Of a stretch of DNA of 64,000 nt, positions 5,058-62,926 are shown piece after piece. Position numbers and translations under genes: made by a program. The notes under the pieces are model-generated. The model worked only from the letters and a program-made list of their open reading frames with translations, was not told the origin of the DNA and did not search any database. Each line of letters starts with the position of its first letter. Positions within the stretch are counted from its first letter, which is position 1. The DNA is from an uncultured delta proteobacterium (lineage in GTDB: Bacteria > Myxococcota_A > Polyangia > Polyangiales > Polyangiaceae), in NCBI GenBank assembly GCA_963696385.1, contig CAVOKF010000002.1:64001-128000 (forward strand), read 5' to 3'.

Positions 5058-5170
5058 GAGCGAATAGTCGCTCCAAAGCGTATCGGCCAACGAAGAGACC
5101 GGGAAACCGCCGCAGTCACATAAGATCCCTTTGGGGCGCTCGTTCTCACTGAAACAGCGGACCGATTTGG
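5058..5170 (+). repeat. oriIS/dif-like repeat, copy 1
   Basis: GAGCGAATAG..CAAAG..TCGGCCAACGAAGAG..CAGTCACATAA-gatccc-TTTGGGGCGCT..GATTTGG. Confidence 0.85.
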
Positions 5171-5396
5171 TCCGGGCGGACGACTCGCGCGGTACGGTCG
5201 ACGGGTGCTTGACGTCGTGCTGGCGGTGACCTGCGTCATCGCCATCGTCCATTCGGCAAGGCAGCGGTTCGTATTCGGGATCGCGTGCGCAATGGCGATC
5301 GTCTACGGACTCGTCGCGTCGGCGTTTTGCGTAATGACCGCTGTCCGGCGCGGAGTGGTCGGCGCGGAGTACGCGTTCGGCCTTCTTTTCCTCGAG

Positions 5397-5840
5397 ATGG
5401 CGATACGCTTGGGGCTCGAGGTGACGCTGGCGATCGTGCAGACCAACACGGTCGGGCACACTCGAGCGGGTGGCTTCCACCGCCTCGCCTTCCAGCCGAC
5501 GTTCGACGGACAGGTCGAGGCCGGACGCGATCACGTCCTCGTGGACGATCACGTCGGCCTTGGTAGCACTCTCGCGAACCTTCGGGGCCACATCGAGAGC
5601 CGCGGCGGTACGGTCGTCTTGGCGACCACGCTGAGCGCGAGCCGTCGCAGTGAGGTGCTTGCGCTTCGCGCCGGGACGCTTCACTCTCTCTCTGACAAGC
5701 ATGGCGAACTCGACAAATACTGGCGGAACCACGTCGGCTTCGGCATCGACGTCCTCACCGAGGCCGAGGCCGGCTATCTCCTGCGCGCCCCGTCCGTTGA
5801 CGCCATCCGAGCTGGAGTGGCTCAGGCGAGAGGGGGCTGA
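5397..5840 (+). pseudogene. Phosphoribosyltransferase-like protein, probably 5'-truncated
   Basis: HVLVDDHVGLGSTLANL PRPP-binding loop. Confidence 0.6.
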
Positions 5841-6016
5841 GTTCCAGGCCGAGTATGCCGCCATCCGCGCCCGCATTGGTCATCCGGTGGATGCGCAGGC
5901 GGCGCGCTCTCGGGGCTGATCGGAACCAGAACCAGGCGGCGGTGCTGAGTTGGCTCCTTTCGTCGTCGTCTCCCCCACGCCGCGGCTGTCCTCGCTCCTT
6001 GGGCTGTCCGCCGGCT

Positions 6017-6350
6017 TCAGGCAGCGGCGCGGTAGTCATGATGAAGGCCGCCGAGCACGGGGATGGCCTCGACCGGGCCAGCAAACTTGGCTCGGGAGCG
6101 TTCCGTGCGGACCGGAGCCTGCTGGCCGATGCCCTGGTGAGGCCGAGCCGGGTTGAAGTAGCTCAGGGCATACTCGGCGAGGAGATACCGCAGGTGCCGC
6201 TCCGACAGGATGATCACGTGGTCGAGGCACTCGCGGCGGACGCTACCCAAGAAGCGTTCGCACACCGCATTCATCAGGGGCGCCCGGACCGCGGTGTGCA
6301 GGACGCGCGTCCCGACGCCCGCGGCGACGCGGTCGAAGACGGCTCCGAAC
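6017..6350 (-). mobile_element. rve/integrase-core transposase, 3' fragment
   Basis: MNAVCERFLGSVRRECLDH...ARPHQG...LGGLHHDYRAAA. Confidence 0.8.
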
Positions 6351-6489
6351 TGCCCAGGTCAAACCCCGAGTACGTGGCGCACCCTCGCCATCGCCCGCCA
6401 GAATCTCGGAGGCTCGTCCGTGACCGACTTCAGAACCGCGGAACATGGGCTTTTTTGCCGCGTTTGCCGCGTTTCTGTTCGCGATCCAG

Positions 6490-6595
6490 GAGCGAGTAGG
6501 CGGCGCAAAGCTTGTCGGCCGACGAAGAGACGCGGAAACCGTCGCGGCCACATAAAAATCGCCTTTGGGGCGTTCAAAGCGCCGTCCCAATTGAG
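6490..6595 (+). repeat. oriIS/dif-like repeat, copy 2 (8-bp spacer)
   Basis: GAGCGAGTAG..GTCGGCCGACGAAGAG..CGGCCACATAA-aaatcgcc-TTTGGGGCGTT..CAATTGAG. Confidence 0.8.
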
Positions 6596-7006: not shown

Positions 7007-8665
7007 TCAGGGGGTCCGCGCGCACCGGAAGCCCTTGTAGGTATCCGCGTTGAGCGGGGGGGCCCCTTGAAATTCGTGAGGGGAGCAGCCAACCCACCAG
7101 TCGCAACCCTGGACGCTTCGACTGTACTGCTCGGGCGGCGCGGGGACCAACCCCAGATACGCGCAATCGCGGCCCGGACAAGGGTACGACGAGGGAAATA
7201 CGTCCAGGGTCCACTCCAGTTCCTCTCCGACCATGTCGAGTTGACCCCAGTAGGCGGCACCCTGTAGCGCGGTTCCCACCGGCGCAACGGAGCACGAACC
7301 GACGGACCACCCCTCACTGCAGTCGAAGTCACACTGGCCGATCTGACCGCAACCGAGGTTGAACTCGCCGCAGGAGCTGGGACCGCAGGCCCTGAAGTTA
7401 GGCACACACCCACTCCCGGCGGTCGGCGCCGGAACGGGCTCGGGATAGTCGCAATCGACAATCGCGTACTCGGGACTCCATACCGCAGTCAGTTCGTTTC
7501 CGGCATCATAAGCGTCCGGACCTGTCGAGCCCCAAGGGTATTCGCGCTCCTGGCTGCCGCCCACGGCGGCGTAGTCCCATTCCGCTGCGCTCGGCAAAAA
7601 CCCGCCATCCCAAATGCAGAACGCATACGCCTGGTACCAGGTGATGCCGGTGGCCGGTAGGTTTTCCGGACTGCCCGCCGTGATCGGCCAAGTGGCACTC
7701 ACGAGCGAGCTCCAAGAAACCCCAACCGGCGCCAGTAGCGCGTTCCAGTCGGTCGCGTCCCAGCCGGTCTCGTACACCGGTTGCTGAGATTGGGTCACGG
7801 CGCTCGCATTGACCAATCCGAGACCCCCATTCACGTGCGTGTGCTTGCCGCTGCCGTTCGCAGGCGGAGCGCCGGAGGCGCCAGCGACGTAGTTCACGTA
7901 CTGCCGGAACCGGCCCGCCGTAACGAGATACTTGTCCAGACGAAAACCACTCACCGTGACCGGGGGGCCCTCCACGAGCGCTCCCGCGTCGGTGACGGTC
8001 GGGTTACTGTTCGCTGGAGCGGGCGCAGCGGACGCGGCGGCAACGCGGTAGTACGTCCCGCCCGGGACTTCCAGGCTCGTGCAGCAGCTTTCGGTTCCGC
8101 TGCCGCCCGGACCGCAATTGGTCATGCCGGGCCCACCGGGGGCGCAACTCGGGGCGACGGTCGTCGAGCCAACGCAGGCGCCATCGACGCAGTCCCCCGT
8201 GAAGCACGTCCATACATTCCCCCATCCGCCGTCGGGGCCGCAGGTCTCGACGGCGTTGCCCACGCACTGCGTGGCCATCGGTGTGCAGACCGCCGACTCT
8301 TCGGTCGCGGCGTCCGCGGTTGGGGCGTCCGCGGTTGGGGCGTCCGCGGTTGGGGCGTCCGCGGTTGGGGCGTCCGCGGTTGGGGCGTCCGCGGTTGCGG
8401 CGTCCGCGGTTGGGGCGTCCGCGGTTGCGGCGTCCGCGCTTCCGGCGTCGGCAGTTGTGGCGTCCGCACTTCCGGTCGATCCCCAAGCACTCGAGAAACC
8501 GCTGGAGCTCGGGCTGCCGATCGATCCGCTTGAGGCGGGCGCGCTTGCGCCGGAGCGGCTGGGGGCCAGCGCCGAATCCGACGGCCCCAACGTGGGCTCT
8601 TCAGCGACTAGACCGCAACCGAAAAGCACGAGGGCGACCGCGCCCGAAACGCAAACTCGGCCCAT
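7007..8665 (-). CDS. FGE-sulfatase (SUMF1/EgtB) domain lipoprotein
   Basis: Lipobox LFGC; FRLDKYLVT, WYQAYAFCIWDGGFLPS, YPWG, GFRCAR. Confidence 0.85.
   Translation of the reverse strand: MGRVCVSGAVALVLFGCGLVAEEPTLGPSDSALAPSRSGASAPASSGSIGSPSSSGFSSAWGSTGSADATTADAGSADAATADAPTADAATADAPTADAPTADAPTADAPTADAPTADAATEESAVCTPMATQCVGNAVETCGPDGGWGNVWTCFTGDCVDGACVGSTTVAPSCAPGGPGMTNCGPGGSGTESCCTSLEVPGGTYYRVAAASAAPAPANSNPTVTDAGALVEGPPVTVSGFRLDKYLVTAGRFRQYVNYVAGASGAPPANGSGKHTHVNGGLGLVNASAVTQSQQPVYETGWDATDWNALLAPVGVSWSSLVSATWPITAGSPENLPATGITWYQAYAFCIWDGGFLPSAAEWDYAAVGGSQEREYPWGSTGPDAYDAGNELTAVWSPEYAIVDCDYPEPVPAPTAGSGCVPNFRACGPSSCGEFNLGCGQIGQCDFDCSEGWSVGSCSVAPVGTALQGAAYWGQLDMVGEELEWTLDVFPSSYPCPGRDCAYLGLVPAPPEQYSRSVQGCDWWVGCSPHEFQGAPPLNADTYKGFRCARTP
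8305..8440. repeat. 15-bp tandem repeat encoding an APTAD linker
   Basis: GCGTCCGCGGTTGGG repeated about 9 times. Confidence 0.9.
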
Positions 8666-10008: not shown

Positions 10009-10131
10009 GAGCGAGTAGGCGTCGCAAAGCCTGCCGGTCGACGAAGAGCCGCGGAAGCCGCCGCGGAAACATATCGCGTCTTAATCGCGTCTTAGGAGCG
10101 TCCGTTGTCGCTGAAGCGGCGAAAGATTTGG
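10009..10131 (+). repeat. oriIS/dif-like repeat, copy 3 (11-bp duplication in core)
   Basis: CGGAAACATAT-cgcgtc-TTA ATCGCGTCTTA GGAGCGTCCGTTG..GATTTGG. Confidence 0.85.
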
Positions 10132-11330: not shown

Positions 11331-11493
11331 GGCGAGTAGTAAACCCAAAGCACGTCGGTCGACGAAGACCTGCGGGAAGCCACCGCGGTCACATATATGC
11401 AATAGGCGATTCTGCGACTGCGCCGGGTGACGCATGCGAGGAGCGCGGACGGGAGACGGCGCAGTTGCTCAATCGACCGGTTGGACGGAGCCG
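11331..11493 (+). repeat. oriIS/dif-like repeat, copy 4 (type B right flank)
   Basis: Left ~66 bp nearly identical to copy 5; right flank ATAGGCGATT..TTGCTCAATCG..TTGGACGGAGCCG matches copy 14. Confidence 0.85.
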
Positions 11494-11940: not shown

Positions 11941-12033
11941 GAGCGAGTAGTAAACCCAAAGCACGTCGGTCGACGAAGAGCTGCGGGAAGCCACCGCGGT
12001 CACATATCGCATCTTATGACGCGTCCGTTGCCA
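11941..12033 (+). repeat. oriIS/dif-like repeat, copy 5 (split by intron; remainder at 13974..13995)
   Basis: CGGTCACATAT-cgcatc-TTATGACGCGT CCGTTGCCA | intron | TTGAAAGTGCCATCCAATTGAG. Confidence 0.85.
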
Positions 12034-13973
12034 GTCGGGTAGGCCGGGGATGTTGTCTCCCCGGCCCCCCTTCGGATCCGGACGTGCGCAATTCACGCAT
12101 CCGGCTCTTCGGTCACGGGTTCGCTGCGCGCGGGAGAAATGGGTGAGCGATGCGAGGCGGCGGGAGCGGGTAGCGCTCCAGCAGAAGCCGCATTCGCTTC
12201 CAAGGCATATGGCGTCGTTGCGACCGGCGGTTGAGCCACCGGCGCCACAACGCAATAGTCTTGCGGCAGAAGAGCGCGATGGCGCGGAAATTCCCGGTGA
12301 TTCCGTAATATCCGTAGTGACCACGCAGCTTTTGCCCAAGTGCCTTCTGCTGCTCGCGGATGGCGTCGTGCCGGTGCTCCCTGCACCATTGCGCGACCCG
12401 CGACACCGCTCTCCGGAAGCGGTCTTTGGCTGTTTTGCGCATGACAATCCACTTGCCAGAGCGAGCTTTGCCCCAGTAGTGCGTGAAGCCGAGTAGGTCG
12501 AAGCTGCCAGGACCTCGGTCGCCGCCATCGACTTTCGATGAGCGACGGTCAGGGCGCTGAAACTCCACCAACCGCGTCTTCTCGGGATGCAGCGCCAGGC
12601 CGTACGCACCCAATCGCTTCGGCAGCACGTCCAGCACCTTGCGGGCATCCACTTCATGCGAAAACAAAAGCACTGCATCGTCCGCGTAGCGGACGAGCAG
12701 CGCCTTGCCCGAAAGCCTTGGTTTAACTTCGCGCTCAAACCAGACGTCGAGCACCTCGTGCAGGAAAATGTTCGCCAGAATCGGCGAAATCACCCCGCCC
12801 TGCGGTGTGCCCGTTTCCGGATACGCAATGGCTCCGTCTTCGAGCACGCCCGCATTCAACCACTTTCCGATGAGCCGCAGCAGCACTCCGTCGTGCACCC
12901 TGCGGCGTAGGACTTCCCGTAATTTCCCGTGGTCCAGGACGTCGAAGAACTTGCGTACGTCGACCTCGAAAACCCACCCGCCACCCATCATTACCGCTTG
13001 ATTCTGCAGGGTCTCGAGCGCTTGATGCGCCGAGCGCCCCGGCCGGAAGCCGTACGAGCAGTCCAGAAAGTCCTGCTCGTAGACCGCCTCCAGCACCATC
13101 GCGACCGCGCGCTGCAATACCTTATCTTCGAAGCTGGGAATGCCGAGCGGTCTCGTTTCCGAGCCGCTCCCCTTCGGGATATGGACTCGCCGCACCGGCG
13201 GTGCTCGGTACGTACCAGACTTCGCGCGTTCGAGAAGCGACTGCAGGTTGCCCTCCAGGTTTTCCGCATACTCTTGCGCGCTCTGCCCGTCTACGCCACG
13301 AGCCCCGTCCTTGCGTGTGCGTCGGTACGCTTCGCGGAGCCAGTCGGTATCGATGTGATGGGCAAGCGTTCGGAACGCCATATCGGGCGCGTCCTTCGCC
13401 AGCTTTCGAGTTTCGTTGAGATGGGAATTGAGTTCGGCGCCTCGGCCATCGTTCCCTCCAGCGGTTCCGTGTTTTCCGGTGCCGCCCTTTGCTCGGCGGG
13501 GTCCCTTGGGACGGTTCCCCCGCGTCGTCGCTCCTACTGCGGCACTCCGACTTCCCGTCGCCCATCGCGCTTGGCTTCGTTGCCTTCGCCGCGCACTACC
13601 GCCGCAATTCAACAGCCGGAGGCGCCGGGATATCCCAGGTTCCTGGACCGTCCTTTGCGTACATGCCCTGCTGTTCACCCCGGCAGAGTCGACGGGCCAG
13701 GCCTTCGGGCTCGCCCGACTTTTCGGCACGTCGATGTTGCCTTCCGCGTTTCAAAACGCGTCGGCCTCCGCGAAGAGACGGATTTCGAGGCTCTTTGCAC
13801 GGCCTGCACGCCCGCTGTGTACGCTTCGCAGCCGCGATTGCTCGCGAACCACGCAACACTCGCTTCCGGCTGGCGGCCCCGCCTTGGCCGGTCGGGAATT
13901 TCACCCGCGGACGGTTACGTGAGGTTTCCGCTCTTACATGTCTTCCTCCTCACCCAGGCTTCGCCTGGCGCAC
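12034..13973 (-). mobile_element. Group II intron, full length (probably bacterial class E)
   Basis: 5' GTGCG at 13973; domain V GAGCCGGATGCGTGAATTGCGCACGTCCGGATC; domain VI ending CCCGAC at 12034. Confidence 0.9.
12113..13449 (-). CDS. ltrA: Group II intron reverse transcriptase/maturase, no En domain; probable frameshift near 13410
   Basis: [28 protein letters not shown]. Natural start [15 protein letters not shown] (13449) is out of frame with KLAKDAP. Confidence 0.9.
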
Positions 13974-15535: not shown

Positions 15536-15552
15536 GGCGAGTAGTAAGCCCA
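15536..15552 (+). repeat. oriIS/dif-like repeat, copy 6 (left stub, followed by intron)
   Basis: GGCGAGTAGTAAGCCCA, identical to the starts of copies 11, 12 and 15. Confidence 0.7.
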
Positions 15553-16245
15553 GTGCGACCAGGCAAGGCTGGTCTGAAAGGAATGAGATGCGATGAGCTC
15601 ATAAAATTCAGAGAGTCGTCCAGCGGGTGCGAACCCCGCCCGGCGAAGGGCCGAGCCCGTCCAGCCGGAAGCGAGGCTTGCGCCGGCCGCCGCAAGGCGT
15701 TCGGCGATGCGTAGTCACGCGAGTGAGTGGGCCGTGGGGAATGCAGCCACGAAAACTACATCAGTCCGGATGCCGAGCGCTTTGGGCGGCGCGAAGGCGA
15801 CGGCGGCTGCTGCGCAGCAGGGCGAGCAGGAGCCGCATCCGGCGGGGTCTACGACCACGGCACGCCACAAGAGGACGAACCAGACACCTGGGAGGCCCTC
15901 GCTTTTCCTCGGTGAAATCCCGGAGCAACGGAGAGCCGGTCACCCGTCTCCGACGCGCCGAGCGCACGCGGATGCGCGCACGGCCGGCCGAGCGCCTCCC
16001 CGTGAGGGGCTCCGCGCAGAACAAGCATTCGCGCCGAGGTAGGCCGCTGGCGAGGGGAGACCGGAGCCACGGCCGAAGGAAGCGGGGGAGTCGGAGGGCC
16101 GCATACGAGCGTGGACGTCGGGGAACGGATTGGCACCCGGACCCGGCCGAGCAAAGGCGGCCCGTGCTGAGTTGAACTTCAGGAGGGAACCATGCCCGAC
16201 GCATCGACGTTGGAAGACATGTCACCGAAACTATTGAAGGTGTCC
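15553..16245 (+). mobile_element. Group II intron 5' fragment (RNA domains plus RT start)
   Basis: GTGCGACCAGGCAAGGCTGG start resembles intron 1; RBS plus MPDASTLEDMSPKLLKV, then truncated. Confidence 0.75.
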
Positions 16246-17524: not shown

Positions 17525-20500
17525 GTGCTCCGCCGACTCGCGAGCGTCGCGATCCTTGCCGCCCTGGCGACGGGCTGCTCGAGCAAGGTCATTCAGGCCG
17601 GCGGCCTGGAGCTGATCCTCGAGACGAACATGAAGCAGGGGACGGACTTCAATTCGATCACCGTCGACATCCAGGAAGAGCAAGGCGAAGCCGGTACGTT
17701 TCGGACCGTCACCGACGTCCCCATCCCCGTTCAGATGGGCACGCTGCCCGGGACGATCTCCATCGCCGCCGGCAAGAGCGGCAACGAAGTGGCGCTCATC
17801 ACGATCACGGCGATGTTGGGCAACACGCCTGTGGTCGACCGCGTGATCGAGGTTCAGGTGCCCGAGGATCGGGTCGCCGAGCTGGTGGTCTTGCTTTCGT
17901 CGAATTGCGCCGGCCAGCTTCACACGAGCTGCCAGGATCCGCAGAGCGAGAGCTGTCAACCGGCTTCGGGGACCTGCGGTTCGGATTCGGTGAATGCTTC
18001 GACCTTGCCCACCTACTCGCCGAACGAGTTCGAAGGGGGGTCGGCGGACGCGACAATCGTCGAAGCCGGGCTCGAGGCCGCAACCGCGGAAACCGGGCCC
18101 GCGGCGCCGCCGGATGCGACGGTCGCCGAAACGGGGTCAGACGCCGCACCGGACGGCACGGCACCCGGCGATGCTTCCGCCGAGCCCGACGCCGTGCCGG
18201 ACGGGCCCCCGTGCACACCGGGTGGATCGTGTACTTTTTCGTCGTGTCAGTCGGGTTCGTACGTGTGCGAGGACGGCGGACGGGTCTGCAGTCCCATTGC
18301 GACGGGACGGATCGAGGCGGGCACGGCCTGCTCCGAGCCTGACGATGCGGATGTCGCGATCGACGCTGGAGCGGAGACGTTCGTGTGCAACGCGGCCGGG
18401 GCGTGCGTCGAGTGCAACGCCGGGGGCGATTGCTCCGAACCCGCACAGCCTTGCATTCGCAAGGCGTATGCCTGCTCCTCGGGGGTGGCCACGTGTCAGA
18501 CGGTCGGAGACGCGGTCGAAGGTTCCTCGTGCGGCGCAGGTTTGTACTGCTACAACGGCGTTTGCAGCGCCTGCACGGTCGGCGCCGCATGCGCACCGGC
18601 AACGCAGCCGTGTCACCTCGGCAGCGTCACGGCCTGCACGGCCGGCGTGGCGACGTGCACCGACCAGACCACGAACGCCGCGGCGGGCAAGTCGTGTGAA
18701 ACCGCGACAGTCCCGATCGGTGTCTGCGACGGCGCGGGCAACTGCGTTTCGTGTACGCCGAACGCGCTATGCACCCCCACGGGCAACACGTGCCAAAGCG
18801 GGACGATGTCCTGCTCGTCCGGCCCCGAGTGCGTCGCCGGAAGCGCCGTCAACCAGGGGAAGCCATGCGGGACCGGCAAGGTTTGCTCCAGCGGAACCTG
18901 CGTGGCGTGCGGCGCGGCGTCCTGCCCCGATGGGTGCTGCAATGCCGACGGGTGCGTCGCCGCCGAGACGACGACCGAATGCGGCCTGGGCGGCGTCGCG
19001 TGCAGCACGTGTCCCCCGCCCGCCGTGGGGGGCGTGGCGGCGTGCGACACGTCCACCGGCGCCTGCGCGGTCACGTGCAACGGGGGCTACCACGCTTGCT
19101 CGGGTGCGTGCGCGGCCAACACGAGTGTGAACACCTGCGGGAGTTCGTGCACGCCATGCGCCCTGCCCAACGCGACGTCCACGTGTACGGGCGGCGCCTG
19201 CGCCATCGCGACGTGCGACCCCGGATTCGGCAACTGCAACGGCCTCGCCTCGGACGGCTGCGAGACTCCCCTCGATACCACCACGAACTGCGCCGGATGC
19301 AACGTCGCCTGCACGCAGCCGAACGCCACGGCGACGTGCGCGACGGGCGTGTGCGCCATCGCCACGTGCGACGGGGGCTACCATATTTGCTCGGGTGCGT
19401 GCGCGGCCAACACGAGTGTGAACACCTGCGGGAGTTCATGCACGCCATGCGCCCTGCCCAACGCGACGTCCACGTGTACGGGCGGCGCCTGCGCCATCGC
19501 GACGTGCGACCCCGGATTCGGCAACTGCAACGGCCTCGCCTCGGACGGCTGCGAGACTCCTCTCGATACCACCACGAACTGCGCCGGATGCAACGTCGCC
19601 TGCACGCAGCCGAACGCCACGGCGACGTGCGCGACGGGCGTGTGCGCCATCGCCGCGTGCGATGAGGGCTACCATATTTGTTCGGGTGCGTGCGCGGCCA
19701 ACACGAGTGTGAACACCTGCGGGAGTGCGTGCACGCCGTGCGCCCTGTCGAACGCGACCTCCGCGTGCACGGACGGCGCGTGCGCCATCGCGACGTGCGA
19801 CACCGACTTCGGCAATTGCAACGGCCTCGCCTCGGACGGCTGCGAGGTGGACCTATTGACTTCGTCCACGAATTGCGGCGCGTGCCAACACGACTGCTTG
19901 GGCGGAGAGTGCTTGGACGGCGAGTGTCAGCCCATTGCGATCGTGCCGGCGACGGCTCAGCCGACCGCGGTCACCAGCGACGGCACGCAGGTCATGTGGA
20001 CCAACTCGGCCGGCGCGGTCCAGGGAGTCAAAGTCACCGGCGGCACGACGTGGACGTTGGGCAGCGCGACCAACGCAAGCCCGTACATCACCAACGACGG
20101 GACGTACACGTATTGGGCGAACAACCTGCCCTGCGCGGATCCCTTGGGGTCGGCGGCCGTCCTTTCGGCGCTCGACACCGGCGGCCCGGCGACGACGCAG
20201 TGGTCCATCGGGAACTGCGGCGTACCGGTCACGATGCAGAGCGTGCTGGCGACCGGCACGACTCTCTATTCCGTCCTGTTCAACCCCTTTGACGGCGAAT
20301 GCGGCGCGACGCTCTATCTCCAGCCGCTCCAGATGCCGAGCGCGACGTCACCCCCGGCCTTCACCAACGGGCCTTGCGTCCCCAAGGGCTTGGCCGCCGA
20401 CGTCACCTCCATCTATTGGACCGACCTAGGCACGGGAGCGGTCATGGCCGAGCCGCTCGCCGGTGGCACGCCCACATCGCTCGCGAGCGCCGTGAGCCCG

Positions 20501-22058: not shown

Positions 22059-22679
22059 TTGACGAAGTTGCTCTCAAGTGCCACCCTAAGGATCATGATT
22101 GGTGACGTGTCCGTTCACGGGCGGCGAATCGTCGTGAAGACGAAGGCACGCGGCGACTTCCTACTGCGAGTCGCCCACGCAACGGCCGACGTGCCCGAGG
22201 CCGAGCTGGGTGGCCCCAGGGTCCTCCGAGTGCTGCTCAATCGGCTCGCGGATAACCTGCTTCCGACGGACGACCCGCTGGTTCATGCGCGGCTCCGTGG
22301 CCTGCTTGCCATGCGGGAGCTCCTCAACGCAAACGGAGGGGCGCTTTCCGCAGACGACGTCCGGACGATGCTTGGCATCTCGCGGCAAGCCGTGGACAAA
22401 CGCCGCAGAGCCGGGAGGCTACTCGCTGTCGAGCTGCCTCGCCGGGGACTTTTCTATCCTGCGTGGCAGTTCACCCCTGCAGGCAGCACCCTTTCCGGCA
22501 TGACCGAGATTCTGGCGGCGCTGAGGAAGCACCAAGTCGACGGTTGGGCACAGCTGCGGTTCTTTTTGAGCCTCAACGACCGGCTCGGCGGACGGCGCCC
22601 GATCGACGTCATCGGCGAAGGAGATGTCGATGCCGTGTTGGAAGCCGTCGGCGCGTTCGATGAGCATGGCGCCGCGTGA
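22059..22679 (+). CDS. Xre/MbcA/ParS-like antitoxin
   Basis: HTH LGISRQAVDKRRR, YPAWQF, RLGGRRPID; coupled to the RES gene. Confidence 0.7.
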   Translation: MTKLLSSATLRIMIGDVSVHGRRIVVKTKARGDFLLRVAHATADVPEAELGGPRVLRVLLNRLADNLLPTDDPLVHARLRGLLAMRELLNANGGALSADDVRTMLGISRQAVDKRRRAGRLLAVELPRRGLFYPAWQFTPAGSTLSGMTEILAALRKHQVDGWAQLRFFLSLNDRLGGRRPIDVIGEGDVDAVLEAVGAFDEHGAA

Positions 22680-23269
22680 GCGTGCAGCACCCCAATCCGC
22701 CGGGGTCGACCGACGCGTTGCGGCTGCTCATCCGACGCATCTCCTACGGTTGGTACCGCATCCACCACACCGGCAACCCCCCCCTACAGTTTGGCACGAG
22801 ACCGAGCAACCGGTTTGATTCGCCGGCCGGTGAATTCGGCGTGCTCTACGTCGCCAAGGACGCGTACGGAGCCTTCATCGAAACGTTCGGCCATGAGACC
22901 GGACGAACACCGCTGGTCACACAGGCCGAGCTGCACGCCCGCGAAATCTCCATCGTCAGCAGTACGCGGGCACTACGGCTCGTCAATCTCCGGGGCGAAG
23001 GGCTATCCCGCATGGGCGCGGACGTAGCGCTCACCAGCGGGTCCGATTATGCCCTTTCACGACGTTGGGCGATGGCCCTTTATCGCCATCGGAGGCAACC
23101 CGACGGCATACTGTACCGGGCGCGTCACGACCCCGCTCGAACGTGCGCCGCTCTCTTCGATCGCGCGGCTCTCGCTCTTACGGCACGGCAAACCGGAACG
23201 CTGCTCGTCCCGGCCCATCTCGGCCTCCTAGCCGACATCCTCGACAGGTATGGCTATGGCCTCGGGTGA
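22676..23269 (+). CDS. RES-domain toxin (NAD+ phosphorylase family)
   Basis: NRFDSP.GEFGVLYVA...AFIETF...DGILYRARHD. Confidence 0.85.
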   Translation: MSVQHPNPPGSTDALRLLIRRISYGWYRIHHTGNPPLQFGTRPSNRFDSPAGEFGVLYVAKDAYGAFIETFGHETGRTPLVTQAELHAREISIVSSTRALRLVNLRGEGLSRMGADVALTSGSDYALSRRWAMALYRHRRQPDGILYRARHDPARTCAALFDRAALALTARQTGTLLVPAHLGLLADILDRYGYGLG

Positions 23270-37360: not shown

Positions 37361-37490
37361 CCAGGTGCGGACTTCCAGGCTGACGCTCAACGTCGCCGCC
37401 AGCGCAACGGCTCGTGGTCGGAAGCTCTCCGCGCTCCAGCGCGGGACACGACGAATCAGGTCTCAAACCTGCCGCGCAGCGGCTTCGTCC

Positions 37491-37537
37491 AAGATCCCTT
37501 TGGGGCGTCCGTTGTTACTCAGCGGCGACCGATTTGG
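37491..37537 (+). repeat. oriIS/dif-like repeat, copy 7 (right half only)
   Basis: AA-gatccc-TTTGGGGCGTCCGTTG..GATTTGG; homology begins at the spacer. Confidence 0.75.
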
Positions 37538-39534: not shown

Positions 39535-39658
39535 GAGCGAGTAGTAAGCCCAAAGTGCGTCGGTCGACGAAGAGCCGCGAAAGAGGGCGCGGAAACATAT
39601 CGCGTCTTAATCGCGTCTTAGGGGCGTTCGTTATCGCTGAATCGGCGAACCGATTTGG
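39535..39658 (+). repeat. oriIS/dif-like repeat, copy 8 (11-bp duplication in core)
   Basis: Full consensus with ATCGCGTCTTA x2. Confidence 0.9.
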
Positions 39659-39666: not shown

Positions 39667-39798
39667 TAAGCCGTTTCGCATACACGCCGACTTCGGCGCG
39701 TGTACCGTAGAGAATCCCCGATGCCTTTGACTACCCAATTCGTGCACTATGCACGTAAGTGATCGACATCACTCGAGAAATAAAGAATCCTACCTATG
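39667..39798 (-). mobile_element. IS4 left-end remnant
   Basis: Matches 800..836 plus 891..980 with an internal deletion. Confidence 0.8.
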
Positions 39799-39871
39799 AA
39801 GACGCGATATGTTTCCGCGCCCTCTTCCGCGGCTCTTCGTTGACCGATACCCTTTCGACTGGCTACTCGCC
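39799..39871 (-). repeat. oriIS/dif-like repeat, copy 9 (cut in core by IS4 end)
   Basis: Minus strand GGCGAGTAG..CGGAAACATATCGCGTCTT | CATAGG. Confidence 0.85.
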
Positions 39872-39902: not shown

Positions 39903-39957
39903 ACCGCGGCGGTTTCCCGGTCTCTTCGTCGACCGACGCTTTGCATTGGCACTCGCC
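39903..39957 (-). repeat. oriIS/dif-like repeat, copy 10 (left half)
   Basis: Minus strand GGCGAGTG..CAAAGCGTCGGTCGACGAAGAGACCGGGAAACCGCCGCGG. Confidence 0.75.
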
Positions 39958-40390: not shown

Positions 40391-40396
40391 GCGTTA

Positions 40397-40506
40397 GGCG
40401 AGTAGTAAGCCCAAAGTGCGTCGGTCGACGAAGAGCCGCGGAAGCGGGCGCGGAAAAATATCGCGTCTTAGGGGCTTCCGTTGTCACCGAGCGGCGAAAG
40501 ATTTGG
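40397..40506 (+). repeat. oriIS/dif-like repeat, copy 11
   Basis: Full consensus; core CGGAAAAATAT-cgcgtc-TTAGGGGCTTC. Confidence 0.9.
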
Positions 40507-40737
40507 CTCATCGAAGTCGTGGACACCTTGCGGGGGGCGCAGTGCAGCTTTCGGAACTCGCACCCCGCCTCCGGCGAGGGGGGTAACTGCCCACGAACGA
40601 TCGGAGCCTCCGATGGAAGCCTGGCGGGATGACGCGCCTAACGCGCCCGTGCTTGATCTACCGAACGGACCTCACGGGCGAGCGTGTCGGGGCAGCGTCA
40701 CGGTCGCATGTGCTACGAATAAACGAGATCCCTCGCC

Positions 40738-41376: not shown

Positions 41377-41400
41377 GGATCGGAACTCATTCGCCTGGAA

Positions 41401-41432
41401 TGCTGTCCATCATGCTGTCCACTTTGCTGTCC
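41401..41432 (+). repeat. TGCTGTCC x3 at 12-bp period (integrase arm-type sites?)
   Basis: Positions 41401, 41413 and 41425, about 130 bp from the tRNA fragment. Confidence 0.5.
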
Positions 41433-41561
41433 CTCACGGCACCCTCGCGCGTAACGAGCTGGACGTGCGCGAGACGCCTCCGGGCCGTCTTTCTCGATAT
41501 TTCAGTTCAAATGCAGTTTGCAGGAAACGCTCTGTAACACGTTGAAACCACGTAACAATCG

Positions 41562-41606
41562 CCTTGCCAAGGTGGACGTCGATGGTTCAAATCCCTTCTC
41601 CCGCTC
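41562..41606 (+). other. tRNA-Gly(GCC) 3' half; att-site remnant
   Basis: CCTTGCCAAGG anticodon arm, GGTTCAAATCC T-arm, TCCCGCT acceptor strand; no 5' half. Confidence 0.75.
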
Positions 41607-42575: not shown

Positions 42576-42687
42576 GGCGAGTAGTAAGCCCAAAGTGCGT
42601 CGGTCGACGAAGAGCCGCGGAAGAGGGCGCGGAAACATATCCCGTCTTAGGGGCGTTCGTTATCGCTGAATCGGCGAACCGATTTGG
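42576..42687 (+). repeat. oriIS/dif-like repeat, copy 12
   Basis: Full consensus; core CGGAAACATAT-cccgtc-TTAGGGGCGTT. Confidence 0.9.
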
Positions 42688-42793
42688 TTCTCGAGCGCAA
42701 CCCGCAATCGTCGACCCGAGTGTTCCGGGACGGCGTCCACCAAATTGAGGATTTCGCAGTCTTTCAATACGTGGAGATCTACAGTCCGCTCGC

Positions 42794-42840
42794 GGCGAGT
42801 AGGCCGTTCAAAGCCTGCCGGTCGACCGAACGAGCCGCGC
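42794..42840 (+). repeat. oriIS/dif-like repeat, copy 13 (degenerate left part)
   Basis: GGCGAGTAGGCCGTTCAAAGCCTGCCGGTCGAC. Confidence 0.7.
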
Positions 42841-51405: not shown

Positions 51406-53139
51406 CTAGGCGGCGGCACGCGTATCGTCGCCGCCGCTCGGCGAGGCGCCGCGCCGTGCGAGGGTGGCCTTGTAGTTCCAGGGGAGCCAGTCGCCGGGAG
51501 CCTCGGCGACGGCCTTGCAATGGCGTTGCAGCGCGGTGAGGTAATCGAAGGGATTTTGGTGGTGCAGCTCGGCGGTGTGAATGAGGGTCATATAGATGTC
51601 GCCGACGCGCGCACCGAGCTCGCTTCTGTAAAAGAACGACACGTTTCTCAACCGAATCGCCATCTTGAGGACACGCTCGCACAGGTTATTGTCGAGCGGC
51701 GCTCCCGGAACACGGAGAAAAACCGTGAATTTGTCCCACCGTTTGAGGAAATAGTGGAAGGCCTGCCCGAGGTCGGAGTGGGGCTCGATGCGCTTTTCGT
51801 CGAGCTGAGCGGTCATCCACTTCTGCAGATCCCCCATGACGGGCGCGCTGAGTCGCTGGTGCACCCGTAATCGCTCGTCGTCCGAGAGGCCTTGCTTTTT
51901 GCAGTCGTTGTCGACCTTGTAAACCGCCGCGAGCCGCTCGAGAAGCGCGAGGCACTCGTCGGGGTAGTTGGCGACCTCGTCGACGACCTTGCGTCGCCCG
52001 TGGGAGATGCAATTGATCTCGATGACGTCATGGCCGTCGGGGACGTTGCGCGAAAGGGCGTCACTCATGAGCAGAGGGACAGGCCGGTCTGGGGCTCGTT
52101 GTTTCAGCAGCTCGGCGAGGTTTTCTCCCGCATGCTTTCGCCCCGTGAAAAATAGCGCGATGACGCCGAGTGACGCGATGATCGAGACGATGGCGGTCGT
52201 GAACAAGCCTGTGCGCTCGGGGGCCTCGAGTGTTCCTTTCGCGAGCAAGTCGGCGCGGCGCTTGCCCATGAGGCTCAAGATGCGCATGTGGCTATCGTCG
52301 ACGTGCAAGAGCTCGGCCTGGGCGGCGATGCGCTTGAGCTCCTTGTAGACCGGCTCGACCCGATCGACGCGATCGCGCAGGACATCCCACTGGGTCGACG
52401 CAGGGACGGGCGTACCGAGATTGTCCTGCAGCTTCTCGAGTCGATGGAAGGGAACGCCCGCGCCGTAGTGCATCACGGCGATCATGCTGCTGGCGGACTC
52501 GTCGCACTTTTCTCCCTGGGCCTCGGGCGGCGGACGAGCGGTGAACACGTGGCCGCAGGCGCCGCAGCGAAGCTGCTTGCAGTGAAAGCAGGCGGCCCCC
52601 AGCGGAGCCCGCCCGACGATCCGAACGAGGGTCGCGGGGGCGGCCAGCTCGTAGACACGGCCTTGTGTGCAGAGCGGGCACGAGTCTCCCCGCCGCAGCG
52701 ACTCGTGATCCACGGTGACGTGCTGCGCCGCGCGATAGGCGGAGGCGGGCACGCGTCCGTGACCCTTGCGCTTTTCTTTCGTGGGGGGCGCCGATGGCTC
52801 CGGCGCACTCTCCGCGGCCGCGGGGGTGGCGCTGGGATCGCTCGCGGGCGCGTCTTGCGGCTCGACCGCCGGATGGGCCGTCTGCGACGCAGGGTTGGCC
52901 ACGTCGGCCTTGATGTGAGCGGTCTTCTCATTGCCCGTGAGTCCGAAGAGGCGCCGCACCCGCGTCAGCGTGGCGTGGGTCTTGCGTAGCTCGCGGGTCG
53001 TCTCGATCACGGTCGTCGCAAGCGCTTCGATGAGGTGGTAGTCGTCGTCACAGACGACCGCCCGGATGCGCTCCAGCATCGGCGGCAGGTCGTTCAGATC
53101 GACGTCACGGACGGGCGTGCGATCCACGTCAGTACCCAC
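51406..53139 (-). CDS. IS66 transposase (TnpC)
   Basis: LHVDDS, MSDALS, CISHGRRK, PLDNNLCERVLK. Confidence 0.85.
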   Translation of the reverse strand: MGTDVDRTPVRDVDLNDLPPMLERIRAVVCDDDYHLIEALATTVIETTRELRKTHATLTRVRRLFGLTGNEKTAHIKADVANPASQTAHPAVEPQDAPASDPSATPAAAESAPEPSAPPTKEKRKGHGRVPASAYRAAQHVTVDHESLRRGDSCPLCTQGRVYELAAPATLVRIVGRAPLGAACFHCKQLRCGACGHVFTARPPPEAQGEKCDESASSMIAVMHYGAGVPFHRLEKLQDNLGTPVPASTQWDVLRDRVDRVEPVYKELKRIAAQAELLHVDDSHMRILSLMGKRRADLLAKGTLEAPERTGLFTTAIVSIIASLGVIALFFTGRKHAGENLAELLKQRAPDRPVPLLMSDALSRNVPDGHDVIEINCISHGRRKVVDEVANYPDECLALLERLAAVYKVDNDCKKQGLSDDERLRVHQRLSAPVMGDLQKWMTAQLDEKRIEPHSDLGQAFHYFLKRWDKFTVFLRVPGAPLDNNLCERVLKMAIRLRNVSFFYRSELGARVGDIYMTLIHTAELHHQNPFDYLTALQRHCKAVAEAPGDWLPWNYKATLARRGASPSGGDDTRAAA

Positions 53140-54004
53140 CGAGCAGGCGTTTTCGGAAGTCGCCGACCAGCGGATATCCGAACAGCTGTTTGAGGGAACG
53201 ATTGGGAATCGAGCCGCGAGCGTCCTTGCCGAGGCCGGCGGTCATCCCGAGAACCGTCCAGTTGGCGGCGCGGTAACACGTGCCGCGAGAACAAGTCGGA
53301 TCGACAAATGTCTCCGTAAAGTAGATCGGATGCCGGTAGACCCGCTGCCAGTCGTCCGAAAGCCGGCGCGAAATGGCGCCGAGCAGATGCGACGCCAGAT
53401 GCGGCACCTTCACCCACGGCAAAATCAGAAACCGGCTCTGGTAGGCGACAAACCGAATATGGGCCCTTCGCTGCTCCTTGGACCAGCCGATGTAGCGATC
53501 CCGAGGCCCCAGATGCCGCGCGGCCGACGACCAGCAGAAACACGCGATCGGCTGTCCGGCCGCCGATACCAGGTACTTGAGGTGCTCGCCGACCGGATGC
53601 GTGTACCCCAGATAGTGATGCTGCTGGACCATCGACTTGACCAGCGACTCCTCGGGCGTGCGTCGAACCTGCCGAATGTCCAGGGGAGCGAGCTCCGCGA
53701 GCGGAACCGCCAGCGGGCGCGCCGGGACATCCACATGATCCACGACCGCGTGCCGACGTGGCTGCTGACTCCGCCATCGCGCCGGCGGCAGCTCCACGTG
53801 GCCTTCCCGGTGCAATCGCAGCATCAGCCCGCGACAGACCGCATCGCACAACGTCCCGTTGGGTTGCGCCCAACCCCACGCCTCACAAACCTTGAACGAC
53901 AACGCTCGGCGACTGGTCCCCGGACTCGCGGCGATCAGCTCTCGCAGAAACGCCACGTCGCCGGCGCGCACCTCGCGTCCTCGATATCGAAGCAATGCCT
54001 CCAT
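53129..54004 (-). CDS. DUF4338 (DruA-like) protein
   Basis: HHYLGY, RDRYIGW, RFLILPWV.VPHLASH, ETFVD, GTCYRAANW. Confidence 0.85.
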   Translation of the reverse strand: MEALLRYRGREVRAGDVAFLRELIAASPGTSRRALSFKVCEAWGWAQPNGTLCDAVCRGLMLRLHREGHVELPPARWRSQQPRRHAVVDHVDVPARPLAVPLAELAPLDIRQVRRTPEESLVKSMVQQHHYLGYTHPVGEHLKYLVSAAGQPIACFCWSSAARHLGPRDRYIGWSKEQRRAHIRFVAYQSRFLILPWVKVPHLASHLLGAISRRLSDDWQRVYRHPIYFTETFVDPTCSRGTCYRAANWTVLGMTAGLGKDARGSIPNRSLKQLFGYPLVGDFRKRLLGGY

Positions 54005-54094
54005 GGGCGCGATCCGTATCGCGCCATTTTTTAGAACGTAAGCTCTATTTTACACCCAGCCTCCGCGTCACGACCGCTCACCGCAGTGTTGCCG

Positions 54095-55286: not shown

Positions 55287-55449
55287 CGGCTCCGTCCAAG
55301 TGGACGATTGAGCAATTGCGCCGATACGCGCCTCGACGCTAATCGCACGCGTCACGGGCGCCGTCGCACAATCGCCTATTATTTATGTTACTGCGGCGGT
55401 TTTCCCGGTCTCTTCGTCGGCCGATGCGCTTTGAAGCCGCTATTCGCTC
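55287..55449 (-). repeat. oriIS/dif-like repeat, copy 14 (type B right flank)
   Basis: Plus strand TTATGTTACTG..GCGCTTTGAAGCCGCTATTCGCTC; flank homologous to copy 4. Confidence 0.85.
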
Positions 55450-55451
55450 CT

Positions 55452-60384: not shown

Positions 60385-60408
60385 CGTAATCCTCTCCCTC
60401 GTCTTGCG

Positions 60409-61362
60409 TCAGCGATCTTGTGCCACGATGATATAAACATGTGGTTGTTTCGGAGGCGGGTCATAGGTTCGCGGCGGCACCGGAAACGGATCAGGAAGCC
60501 CATTCGTTAGTTCGTCTGTTGTCGCGACGACTGCGTAAACCATGAGATTCACAGGAGTCGCCTCGGCTTGAAAGTCTATCTCCTCGTCCGCGGGCCAAAC
60601 TCCAACAATCCAATAATATGAATTTGTATCCTTGCATTCGAGCTGCGCTGGCGATTCGAGCAGGAGCTCGTCCGTGCCCGCCTGCAGCGTCGATTCGGGC
60701 GTCTCCGCGATGCGTCGATCAGGCTGTCCGTTGGTCTCCGTGTAGAGGCCGAAGCGAATGGGCTCGGGGTTGGGGTCTGAGGTGGCGTTGACGTCGGTGA
60801 ATCCGATACCGGTGACAATGCCGCAGGTGTCAGGCTGGATCTCGATGCCCACAAGATTCCCCGCAATGGGCTGAGTGTCTGGGCCGGCGCCCACGTAGCC
60901 ATATCGTTCGACATCGAAGCACGTCGCGTCCTGGCAAACGCTGAAATCCTGGCACGGGGGGGTGCAAGCGCCGGCGTCACTGGGTTCGCCTTCGGAGGAA
61001 GCGTCGGGCATGCTGCCGGACGCGCCGGTCTCTTCTCCATTGAATGAGTCTGGGGCACCCTCGTCTTGCCGCACAATGTCCGCGGCGTCGACGGAAGCGG
61101 GGATGCACATATGTGCCGCGCATACGGAAGTCCCGGGGGGGAAGCCGGAGGTTCGACAGTCTTTCGCCGTGTCGCACGCCGGCTGGCAGGCGTTGGAAAG
61201 ACAGATCTCGCTGCCGAGGCAGTCGGAGTCCTGGACGCACTCCACCAGAACGCTGGACCGCTGGAAACCGAACAGGTCGCTGCACCCCGCGGCGGGCAGC
61301 AGTACGCCGAGCGACGCGCCCCAGGTCACGGCCGCCCCCCGTGCTCTGCTTGACGTCACCAT
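60409..61362 (-). CDS. Cys-rich lipoprotein
   Basis: AAGC lipobox; CVQDSDC motifs. Confidence 0.7.
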   Translation of the reverse strand: MVTSSRARGAAVTWGASLGVLLPAAGCSDLFGFQRSSVLVECVQDSDCLGSEICLSNACQPACDTAKDCRTSGFPPGTSVCAAHMCIPASVDAADIVRQDEGAPDSFNGEETGASGSMPDASSEGEPSDAGACTPPCQDFSVCQDATCFDVERYGYVGAGPDTQPIAGNLVGIEIQPDTCGIVTGIGFTDVNATSDPNPEPIRFGLYTETNGQPDRRIAETPESTLQAGTDELLLESPAQLECKDTNSYYWIVGVWPADEEIDFQAEATPVNLMVYAVVATTDELTNGLPDPFPVPPRTYDPPPKQPHVYIIVAQDR

Positions 61363-62387
61363 GTCTTCTCCACGGTAAGACCCCACGCCGTTGGCCCGGC
61401 GGAAGGCTCAACGCGCAGGTCTCGGGCGGGCGACGGCAATGCCCGCGCCAACCAAAGGAAGGCCGCGCATGCGAACGAGATTGCCCCGGTCGCAGCAGCC
61501 ACCGACGCCACCCCGGCTTGCCCGTACGCGCGCGATTGGACGTTCAGCCCCTGTCGCGTACAGAAGCGACCCTGACAGTCGGCGCTGTCGTACGTCGACC
61601 GCGCAGATAACGCGAAGCCCGCCGCGACGCCCAGGGCCCCCATTGCCACCGCGCCCATCGTCACGGCAGCGGTTCGCCGGGTGCCCAACCCGCGTGCCGA
61701 GCTTGTGCCTGTGGGGGGAGCGGGCGCTGACGCGCGTGTCGGGCGACTCAGGGGCGCGACCGCCGCCGTGGGCAACGGATCGAGCGCCGGAATTTCGATC
61801 GTCGGCGTACGCTGCGCCTCGACCTCGAGCGTCGTCGACCAGGTTTGCTTTCCCCAGGCGCTCACCTTCACGTCGTGTCGGCCTAAGTCGACAGGCGTGG
61901 GCCGATCGATCTGATGGGCTCCCAACGGCTCGCCATCGAGGCGAATATCGAGAAGGGTCGCGTCGACTGTCTTGTCGACGCGGACGACGATCCAGGCGAT
62001 CGCGGCCTCGAGCTTCGCGGCGCGAGCGCGCGCCGCGCTCTCCCACTCGGACTTGCCGTCCCCGCGGGCAGCGACGGCAGCGGATTGGTACTCCGTCCAA
62101 GCCTGCGCCCTCTTGCCGAGCTTCTCGTAGCAATAGGCGAGATTGAGCATGGTTCCCGCGCCCGGATCGAGCCTCAGACTCTCCTCGAACTCCGCGGCTG
62201 CCGCTTCGTAGGCCCCGCGATCCATCAGCTCCCGGCCCCTTCGGAACGGCTCCCATGCCGCCACCTCTCGGCCGTCGTCCTCGACTCGACTCCGCGCGGA
62301 CACGCTATCCCCCTGCGCCCACGCGACGTCATCGACTACGCCGATGAACACCACCAGACGAACCGCGATCGCGAATGCGCGTGTCAT
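61356..62387 (-). CDS. TPR/PEGA-like exported protein
   Basis: FEESLRLDPGAGTMLNLAYCYEKLG. Confidence 0.75.
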   Translation of the reverse strand: MTRAFAIAVRLVVFIGVVDDVAWAQGDSVSARSRVEDDGREVAAWEPFRRGRELMDRGAYEAAAAEFEESLRLDPGAGTMLNLAYCYEKLGKRAQAWTEYQSAAVAARGDGKSEWESAARARAAKLEAAIAWIVVRVDKTVDATLLDIRLDGEPLGAHQIDRPTPVDLGRHDVKVSAWGKQTWSTTLEVEAQRTPTIEIPALDPLPTAAVAPLSRPTRASAPAPPTGTSSARGLGTRRTAAVTMGAVAMGALGVAAGFALSARSTYDSADCQGRFCTRQGLNVQSRAYGQAGVASVAAATGAISFACAAFLWLARALPSPARDLRVEPSAGPTAWGLTVEKTW

Positions 62388-62812
62388 CACGCGCCCCTTA
62401 TTCTGGAATGCTCGCAGGAATCCGTGCGGACGGCCTGCGAACCGAGGCGCCGTGTGCCCGTCGCTGAGCGGCACCGGCGCGACCCCTCCGGCCGTCGCGA
62501 CCATGGCAATTGCTCCAGCCTTGGCCGACCCCCGCAGGGGCCGCTCTGACGACTCGCGAGAAGATGACGATGGCCGCCATGACCGACACACACTACGCCT
62601 TACCCCACGGCGGGACAGCAGGCGATTTCAGTCGGTTACAGCCTGCGGTGCCCATGACTTCGCGTCGGGCTGGGCGTAGGCCGCCCCCGCCCCTTCTTCT
62701 CAACCCCGACGAAGCCGCTACAACGGCCAGCGCTGGTGAGCCTCATCGAGCAGATGTCGCGCGAGAATCCGCTTTGGAGCTCCAGATGCTCGGCGACTCG
62801 GTGCGGCCCCTC

Positions 62813-62926
62813 GGCGAGTAGTAAGCCCAAAGTGCGTCGGTCGACGAAGAGCCCGCGGAGGCGGGCGCGGAAACATATCGCGTCTTAGGGGCTTCCGTTG
62901 TCACCGAGCCGCGAACCCGATTTGAG
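62813..62926 (+). repeat. oriIS/dif-like repeat, copy 15
   Basis: Full consensus, about 200 bp upstream of the ISCR transposase. Confidence 0.9.

Follow-up and report, generated by a model that had tools for sequence, protein, structure and literature searches.

Insertion sequences (ISs) of the IS91 family insert without duplicating their target and require about 82 bp of the origin end, according to the available part of one account (PMC13181058). In ISCR1 the origin side adjoins variable genes, and ISCR transposition was without experimental proof as of 2018, as stated in the available text of a paper of that year (PMC6218425). The closest precedent in the literature for miniature or non-autonomous IS91-family elements is, as far as its available text goes, the study of IS801, in which origin-end 'miniature sequences' of 229, 360 and 679 nt were found in 26% of trapped IS801 insertions, as products of one-ended transposition (PMC3189936). 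Here we describe a repeat of about 111 nt that recurs in a 64,000-nucleotide stretch (the window; positions 64001-128000 of contig C2) of the 6.94-Mb genome of an uncultured member of the Polyangiaceae (G000; 65.8% G+C, eight contigs). This repeat, hereafter the unit, is very probably an ISCR-like origin-end module, that is, the terminal ~111 nt of an IS on the side of its origin (oriIS).

The tie to an ISCR/IS91-type Y2 transposase, which a sequence-only reading of the window had proposed, was borne out by the parent element. Open reading frames (ORFs) with Zn_Tnp_IS91 and Y2_Tnp domains are found at four loci in the genome, three intact and one broken, and each of the four genes is followed downstream by an inversely oriented unit. 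Alignment of the IS copies shows the unit to be collinear with their final 111 nt, and homology among the copies ends exactly at the outer end of the unit (C4:38312/3, C4:1138005/6, C6:129111 and C2:131605/6). The full element spans about 1.99 kb and comprises a GC-rich left end (GCGGTGGCCGCGTCACCC..), at which loose ends of metagenome contigs also break, a gene for a 567-aa HUH/Y2 transposase (for example C4:36433-38133), 64 nt with an inner CTTTG motif, and the 111-nt unit, which ends ..CTTTGGGCTTACTACTCGC(C) on the transposase strand. As in ISCR1 and ISCR2, the transposase combines the two Pfam domains, both above their cut-offs (PF04986, Y2_Tnp, E = 2.4e-23; PF14319, Zn_Tnp_IS91, E = 3.2e-17). 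It is 35-38% identical to the transposases of ISCR1 and ISVsa3/ISCR2, and a four-sequence alignment that includes ISCR1 and ISCR2 shows no variation at an HFH motif and two tyrosines. Its best NCBIfam model is ISCR_clade_Ia, at 282.8 bits and below the 925-bit cut-off, and it scores 97 bits with transpos_IS91, below the cut-off of 125. The protein is thus a distant member that falls outside the named clades. The broken transposase gene holds a large serine recombinase gene (Resolvase, Recombinase and Zn_ribbon_recom domains with an HTH_17 tail; C2:127436-129535).

The outer end of the unit, which reads GCGAGTAG, is the IS terminus. We compared it with the ends of ISCR1 and ISCR2, each set at the point of divergence among three plasmid records in which the neighbours differ. 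Read on the transposase strand, the elements run out at ..GGTTTATACTTCCTATACCC in ISCR1, ..CGTTTATTCTTCCTATAC in ISCR2, ..CACTTTGGGCTTACTACTCGCC in G000 and ..GCTTTGGGCTTCCTACCCTCC in a relative from genome G011. All four share the pattern TTT-N3-CTT(C/A)CTA-N2-C, as judged from a visual alignment of short motifs to which no statistic is attached. The sequence-only reading had called the outer end oriIS-like from an ISCR string; the resemblance to the ISCR1 and ISCR2 termini stood, but the string was inexact, the true ends being GTTTATACTTCCTATAC(CC) and GTTTATTCTTCCTATAC. As in ISCR1/2, the origin end follows the transposase gene (at 175 nt here versus ~232-237 nt there), and in both cases diverse, often truncated genes adjoin it. 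A search of window positions 39400-42800 for an outward sigma-70 promoter, as in ISCR1, returned no site. Apart from its scores below the curated cut-offs, the G000 element differs from ISCR1/2 by its discrete 111-nt terminal module, found solo about 90 times, by the presence of a left end, by the absence of resistance genes, and by its host, a soil bacterium of the Polyangiaceae rather than a member of the Gammaproteobacteria. Two observations on such ends stand on their own. Plasmid CP113227.1 carries the terminal 19 nt of the ISCR1 oriIS (GTTTATACTTCCTATACCC) twice in tandem, behind the ISCR1 transposase gene and directly before the neighbouring gene. In G000, the first 18 nt are missing from four units (C6:22245, C6:105678, C7:1370153 and C7:1434088), and in front of these units stand a GC-rich palindrome (GGCCCCGGGGCCAGTAAGCGCCCGGGGC) and, after it, CTACTCGAC, an inverted copy of the outer end.

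Across the genome, nhmmer detected 100-103 copies of the repeat, and R1, a sequence-only covariance model with 16 copies as input, detected 94. Forty-nine copies are full-length, the outer end is kept in 71 and the inner end in 73. About nine in ten are solo units without a transposase gene, and 90 copies sit in multi-copy clusters that cover 433 kb in total. Several units with their flanks are duplicated between C6:1-60000 and C7:1-100000 (e.g., C6:1099 = C7:3257 and C6:4036 ~ C7:6194), owing to large repeats or an assembly effect, so that the counts may contain a few duplicates. In the window, the core 15-mer has 26 matches where 9.5 are expected, a number reached by none of 100 shuffles, and 12 of these have at most one mismatch. 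Each of the 15 copies listed by the sequence-only reading holds the repeat: R1 recovers 14 (E <= 2.4e-4) and the fifteenth was read by eye, with seven full-length copies and eight partial ones (left parts, one right part and short stubs; Table 1). For the minus-strand copy listed from 55287, the left part at 55381-55448 was upheld, the remainder being a different inner sequence. The proposed consensus agrees with our alignments, and the copies are, as had been noted, diverged into many subfamilies, mostly devoid of a transposase and located at joints with cut genes. Rfam at gathering thresholds reported nothing on the units, and only group II intron domains in the window. Summed contig depth was several-fold higher on the unit than on the IS body in four of four metagenome runs; depth is unfit for ranking parts of a stretch, and we therefore do not count this as evidence.

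Both ends of the unit are nucleotide-precise joints to unrelated, truncated DNA. When filled sites were compared with uninterrupted paralogues (17 comparisons), the unit started at G(C/T)GA(G/A)TAG, give or take one base, in agreement with the sharp outer boundary at cut genes seen earlier. The inner boundary is just as sharp: in nine filled/uninterrupted comparisons the unit ended at ..GATTT(G), often with 2-5 nt of microhomology. The adjacent base is a purine in 62 of 65 unique outer flanks and in 56 of 60 unique inner flanks. Direct repeats flanking 43 full units were no longer than those of shuffled flank pairs, indicating that there is no target duplication, as the sequence-only reading had expected of these junctions. 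The flanks on the two sides behave differently. Homologues of outer flanks found elsewhere are without the unit in 67 of 69 boundary-reaching matches, and homologues of inner flanks carry it in 64 of 120. This identifies the outer end as a terminus landing in other DNA and indicates that DNA on the inward side can travel with the unit.

Individual junctions illustrate these boundaries. The two flanks of unit 5059 are unrelated, and its inner flank, from exactly 5170, is common to genome G003, where it occurs without the unit. The outer end of unit 10010 lies 8-10 nt from the ribosome-binding site of a minus-strand gene, and three paralogues in G003 and one in G000 have other DNA at the junction point. 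A repeated element, uninterrupted elsewhere, is truncated in the outer flank of unit 40397, and the outer-flank paralogue of unit 42576 (C6:197469-197643) runs on without a unit. Next to the copy at 55381-55448, the outer flank is a 71-nt piece of the 3' region of an ISCR-like tnpA (96-97% matches to C4:38018-37948 and others). Unit 62813 precedes the left end of the broken ISCR-like element by ~80 nt and points the opposite way from the origin-end unit that belongs to this element (C2:131497-131606, past the window). A few unit-plus-cargo blocks recur with different outer flanks; one recurring block, a unit with ~860 nt, is found at C4:1147417 and C6:46575 (92.6% alike). A 2.5-kb copy of a chromosomal locus (C7:712864-715376, 92.7%) at C4:38314-40825 begins immediately beyond the origin end of an intact IS copy, with no base in between; the copied locus encodes, without its N-terminus, a 617-aa protein that is complete at C7 and in G003. 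We rejected C4:38314-42707 as a single captured piece, because only 38314-40825 is collinear with C7 and the rest is a paralogue in the other orientation.

Relatives of the element in the same genus, with 57-69% transposase identity, have the same layout behind the stop codon, namely an inner motif (GTGCGCTTTGAA-N3-GCT or similar) followed by a module of 110-112 nt. All six elements compared (transposase identity 57-100%) carry this module, running from CA(A/C)(A/T)T to CT(A/T)C(T/C)C(G/T)CC with a diverged interior. Kept in length and position and diverged in sequence, the module thus co-evolves with its transposase. In more distant relatives (46% identity) the tail is shorter, ~40 nt, with a terminus of like kind. 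Full-length solo copies of the cognate modules, with an identical inner boundary, occur in G006 (eight, beside the IS-linked one), G012 (three) and G011 (one), mostly preceded by CT on the transposase strand. Three 100%-identical units occupy three different contexts in G000, and G006 holds four identical units. The transposase family is present in 21 of 31 genomes of the genus (a tally that includes the unpublished G010) and in 73 of 201 sampled genomes of the order. The G000-type unit is found in five of the 31 genus genomes: 94 copies in G000, 55 in G003, four in G044, one in G006 and one weak match in G001. A wide protein-anchored scan of genome contigs returned three loci, all from close relatives, and named records place the group in the Polyangiaceae.

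How could a terminal module come to exist alone? We favor a mechanism in which two transposase cleavage sites would bound the unit, the outer origin nick and a fixed inner site behind the second, origin-like CTTTG. The sequences just inside the two proposed sites resemble each other (on the transferred strand, ..CAAAG.GC..GTCG). If rolling-circle strand transfer began at the outer site and terminated at the inner one, the unit would be released or left behind by itself; if it began at the inner site, the IS body would be moved and could then rejoin other units. Solo units would stay cleavable ends and, as a consequence, would come to sit at joints of unrelated, truncated DNA; at unit joints we find other IS copies, conjugation genes and copies of chromosomal genes. 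Such a two-site model would account for the exact ends, for solo copies in several species and for the mismatch between bodies and units. Taken as one statement, the identity of the module together with its generation as a miniature derivative through two cleavage sites seems to us reasonably probable, going by the sequences. Within it, three steps are inferred: inner-site cleavage by the transposase, premature termination as the source of solo units, and possible mobilisation of neighbouring DNA by units; gene shuffling by the units is plausible. A further-reaching version would treat the unit as a self-contained 'origin cassette', open to release, to exchange among IS bodies and to being left in place as a still active one-ended origin. 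The IS91/ISCR group would then have its first non-autonomous family of high copy number and natural diversity, the bacterial equivalent of non-autonomous Helitrons, which assembles islands from captured DNA of chromosomal and mobile origin; we regard this version as possible but, on balance, doubtful. What is new is a discrete, length-conserved terminal module with ~90 solo copies in many subfamilies, an inner boundary that is exact across species, and a role as a homing site.

Several observations weigh against the two-site model. The interrupted target resumed neither behind the unit nor within 40 kb inward in any of 18 informative cases; two further rows of this test were copies of the filled locus, and one apparent match was a second IS4-like copy. 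No unit can thus be demonstrated to be a simple 111-nt insertion, and the two-site model alone leaves the missing target halves unexplained. They might result from intramolecular events (adjacent deletions) or from new blocks landing at the outer nick of resident units. Known active members of the IS91 family use a 4-nt target of the GTTC/CTTG type. The 65 unique outer flanks have no conserved tetranucleotide and a bias at position -1 only, and targets end in varied bases in the 17 filled-versus-uninterrupted comparisons. The inner-end tetranucleotide, TTTG on the transferred strand (CAAA on the transposase strand), is unlike the left end of the IS (..CCGC/GCGG). Neighbouring units less than 10 kb apart share their orientation in 38 of 63 pairs and are opposed in 25. 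No circle joint was seen in the metagenome runs used, which, like all 24 public runs listed, consisted of assembled contigs. Comparisons for empty sites returned none: not within G000 for any of 103 matches, not in relatives for the C3 copy, which adjoins a repeated, truncated gene for a type IV secretion system coupling protein, and not in G003, where between-unit segments in common break at unit boundaries but join other DNA. For the G006 locus with two solo units, no match among the 31 genomes spans the site.

The comparison with IS801 cuts both ways. Like the IS801 miniatures, as described in the available text of that study, the units are short IS91-family derivatives with an intact origin end and a fixed internal stop, without a transposase and without target duplication. 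There, however, the fragments end in a tetranucleotide that resembles the left end, unlike the TTTG of the units, and the authors ascribed most genomic fragments to rearrangement rather than transposition; both points count against the two-site model (PMC3189936). Genomic fragments of IS801 were also rare (two likely cases) in comparison with ~90 copies in many subfamilies in G000, and the mobility of the IS801 miniatures was observed, whereas the units are known from sequence alone.

The center of the unit, ACATAW-N6-TTWGGGG, is conserved, and the sequence-only reading had taken it for a dif-like site. A Xer/dif site consists of two arms of ~11 bp, related by an imperfect dyad symmetry, with a spacer of 6-8 bp between them. 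Such a site was not supported here: the arms lack dyad symmetry, with ACATAT agreeing with the complement of TTAGGG at ~3 of 8 positions, and there is no signal of exchange at the core. Four-gamete quartets between the core and neighbouring parts were absent (S1-S4, 0; S4-S5, 0) and occurred elsewhere in the unit (S1-S3, 2; S3-S4, 4). The core is instead the target of a ~1.45-kb IS4-like element (DDE_Tnp_1), and left and right halves of the unit are found apart because this element has inserted there. It has at least 14 copies in G000 and ends in CATAGGTAGGAT.. and ..ATCCTACCTATG (also read as CATACGTTGGTA..). Insertion at ACAT/AT-N6-TT/AGGGG (slashes mark the cut points) is accompanied by a ~10-bp duplication (AT-N6-TT), and units with a doubled ATCGCGTCTT, such as those at window positions 10010 and 39536, look like excision footprints of the same element.

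Two other kinds of mobile DNA use the unit. A ~1.78-kb IS110-family element (NF033542, 'RNA-guided transposase', E = 4.9e-64) lies at GATT/TGG, the inner end, in five or six units of different subfamilies, and appears to home into the unit. Group II intron domains or RVT_1 at 12034-13901(-), 15631-15857(+) and 40000-40107(-) are each within ~100 nt of a unit or stub. Both group II introns and IS110-family elements are known for inserting at attC or REP-like sites. A consensus fold of 16 copies (RNAalifold) reached -3.6 kcal/mol with 11 weak pairs, and further alifold runs gave almost no pairs. Folds of single copies as DNA vary by subfamily, with only a local CCGCGG..CCGCGG hairpin recurring, without covariation.

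These observations bear on three other explanations. The unit could be an independent landing pad, with the ISCR-like IS ending at its inner CTTTG and inserting site-specifically behind ..GATTTG of a unit, so that homology among copies would reflect shared targets and not shared ends. IS bodies and units are indeed uncoupled: tnpA 3' sequence adjoins eight units, seven of which retain their left part, and the bodies, 84-99% alike, sit next to six different left-part types, a swap also seen in contigs of three metagenome runs, where the unit subfamily switches 4 nt from the inner boundary (loose ends at L006:4205). The end of the body (AACAGATTCAAAGCGCACGTCG) resembles the outer part of the unit (AGTAAGCCCAAAGTGCGTCGG), so that the body has an origin-like end of its own, and three other types of mobile element likewise target the unit. 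The inner ends TTTG, ATTG, TGTG and AGTG also resemble the CTTG target of IS91 as given in the available part of its description (PMC13181058). However, relatives at 57-69% identity possess their own diverged module of equal length and place, none of the eight tnpA 3' ends in G000 is without a unit, and the 15-nt spacing and CTTCCTA-like motif of the ISCR1/2 oriIS are found on the outer terminus, not on the inner motif. We consider a landing pad unlikely, though it overlaps with the two-site model, as re-insertion of a body beside solo units belongs to both. Less likely still is that solo units are passive relics of IS copies eroded by deletion, insertion and homologous recombination, with no movement or mobilisation. 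Other mobile elements that cut units (IS4-like and IS110-family elements and group II introns) crowd the islands, the other target halves are missing, the reassortment of segments among units fits homologous exchange, and G003 has 55 units and only C-terminal transposase fragments in its 330-contig assembly. For most genomic IS801 fragments the same conclusion was drawn, as the available text has it (PMC3189936). Random erosion, on the other hand, would not produce an inner boundary constant to within one base across 60 unique flanks and the modules of three other species; solo copies that are 100% identical in differing contexts suggest recent events, and unit-plus-cargo blocks recur with differing outer flanks.

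We also weighed whether the unit is a site-specific recombination site (Xer/dif, pdif modules or integron attC) that bounds gene cassettes. Runs of units in the same orientation, spaced by 0.6-3.6 kb of small genes including toxin-antitoxin genes, would fit, as would the conserved core and the preference of group II introns and IS110-family elements for attC or REP-like sites. Integron attC sites carry an inverse core and a core site (RYYYAAC ... GTTRRRY) at their ends, fold into a hairpin with extrahelical bases and are accompanied by an IntI integrase. The units end in GCGAGTAG and GATTTG, without terminal inverted core sites, their consensus fold is weak, and no integrase is linked to them: the sole Phage_integrase ORF of the window (26815-27762) is not adjacent to a unit. 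Together with the asymmetric arms, the lack of any quartet between the core and either side, the separation of halves by the IS4-like element with its ~10-bp duplication, and the frequency of both unit orientations, this makes a recombination site highly improbable.

The origin-end reading also invites comparison with other HUH systems. As in the non-autonomous Helitrons of eukaryotes, a rolling-circle HUH system has short derivatives that outnumber autonomous copies, adjoin captured gene fragments and leave no target duplication. Helitrons encode a Rep-helicase protein, versus the Zn-ribbon Y2 protein here, and their derivatives keep both parental termini, whereas the unit keeps the origin-side ~111 nt only. 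REP/REPIN-RAYT systems are similar in pairing a short, structured repeat with an HUH protein and in being homed into by IS110-family elements, but the units are confined to mobile-DNA islands instead of being spread between genes, and have no consensus hairpin fold. RAYT (Y1_Tnp, PF01797) had no match in G000, with a control positive in six of 14 known genomes.

Table 1. Units, unit fragments and associated mobile elements (window positions unless a contig is given; R1 scores)
Feature	Position	Strand	Evidence and remarks
Full-length unit, subfamily TCGCTC/CGTA	5059..5170	+	R1 86.4 bits, E 5e-26, model 2-113
Unit with ~10-nt internal deletion, right part	6491..6594	+	R1 71.1 bits, model 2-112
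Full-length unit, 11-nt core duplication (ATCGCGTCTTA ATCGCGTCTT)	10010..10131	+	R1 92.3 bits
Left part of unit, model 2-67	11331..11397	+	Then different inner sequence, common to copy 55381-55448
Unit cut at model position 93 by group II intron	11942..12035	+	R1 71.8 bits
Intron_gpII	12034-12109	-	Rfam; adjoins unit 11942..12035
RVT_1 ORF	12116-13750	-	Beside truncated unit 11942..12035
group-II-D1D4-6	13669-13901	-	Rfam
25-nt outer-end stub (GGCGAGTAGTAAGCCCAGTGCGAC)	15537..15561	+	Read directly; group II intron 5' domain from 15631
Right part only, model 64-113	37488..37537	+	R1 16.9 bits, E 2.4e-4
Full-length unit with 11-nt core duplication	39536..39658	+	R1 99.3 bits
Left part, model 2-75	39798..39871	-	Core cut by IS4-like element end (CATAGGTAGGAT...); repeat family D14 at 39708-39786
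Left part, model 2-59	39903..39957	-	R1 32.9 bits; group II intron fragment at 40000-40107(-)
Full-length unit	40397..40506	+	R1 99.6 bits
Full-length unit, best model match	42576..42687	+	R1 107.1 bits, E 1.8e-32
Left stub, model 2-46	42794..42840	+	R1 19.4 bits, E 3.8e-5; family D10
Left part, model 2-68	55381..55448	-	R1
Full-length unit	62813..62923	+	R1 98.1 bits
Left end and 5' part of broken ISCR-like IS91-family element	63007..64000	+	Left-end alignment; blastn to intact copies
Zn_Tnp_IS91 domain ORF in broken element	63091-63669	+	Pfam PF14319, E 1.9e-11
IS4-like element or ends	3-929	-	
IS4-like element or ends	39658-39786		
Unit halves from IS4-like insertion	C4:48221, C5:729942, C6:107800, C7:1399143, C7:1435985, C4:1147993 and elsewhere		
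IS110-family element copies	C6:114416-116195, C2:21732-23509, C6:105772-107550, C6:22340-24105, C4:1017819-1019594		
IS110-family element, 194-nt piece	C4:1139863-1140056		

Other features of the window were observed alongside the units. Defense or toxin-antitoxin genes or fragments lie between units, namely DruA (53132-54049, -), Mrr_N (34001-35158, +), RES (22664-23266, +), BrnA antitoxin (28321-28950, -) and Uma2 (40723-41373, +). A 15-nt tandem array of ~14 GGCGTCCGCGGTTGG-like units occupies 8272-8482, in a long ORF with an FGE-sulfatase domain, and three 291-nt tandem repeats at 19072-19944 belong to a 1193-aa ORF without a Pfam match.

ISCR elements are blamed for building resistance-gene arrays, and their movement is mostly inferred. 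About 100 natural copies of an origin end, with base-exact ends, subfamilies, three intact transposases and cognate modules in relatives, form a comparative set for locating ISCR-like cleavage sites, and could show whether origin ends alone reshuffle neighbouring DNA. If the units prove to be relics only, the finding comes down to a tidy annotation of a repeat family of the Polyangiaceae. If the origin-cassette version is true, they would constitute a tractable natural set of substrates for showing ISCR-type transposition. The use of origin ends as homing sites by IS110-family elements, an IS4-like element and group II introns helps explain how these islands grow into dense mosaics.

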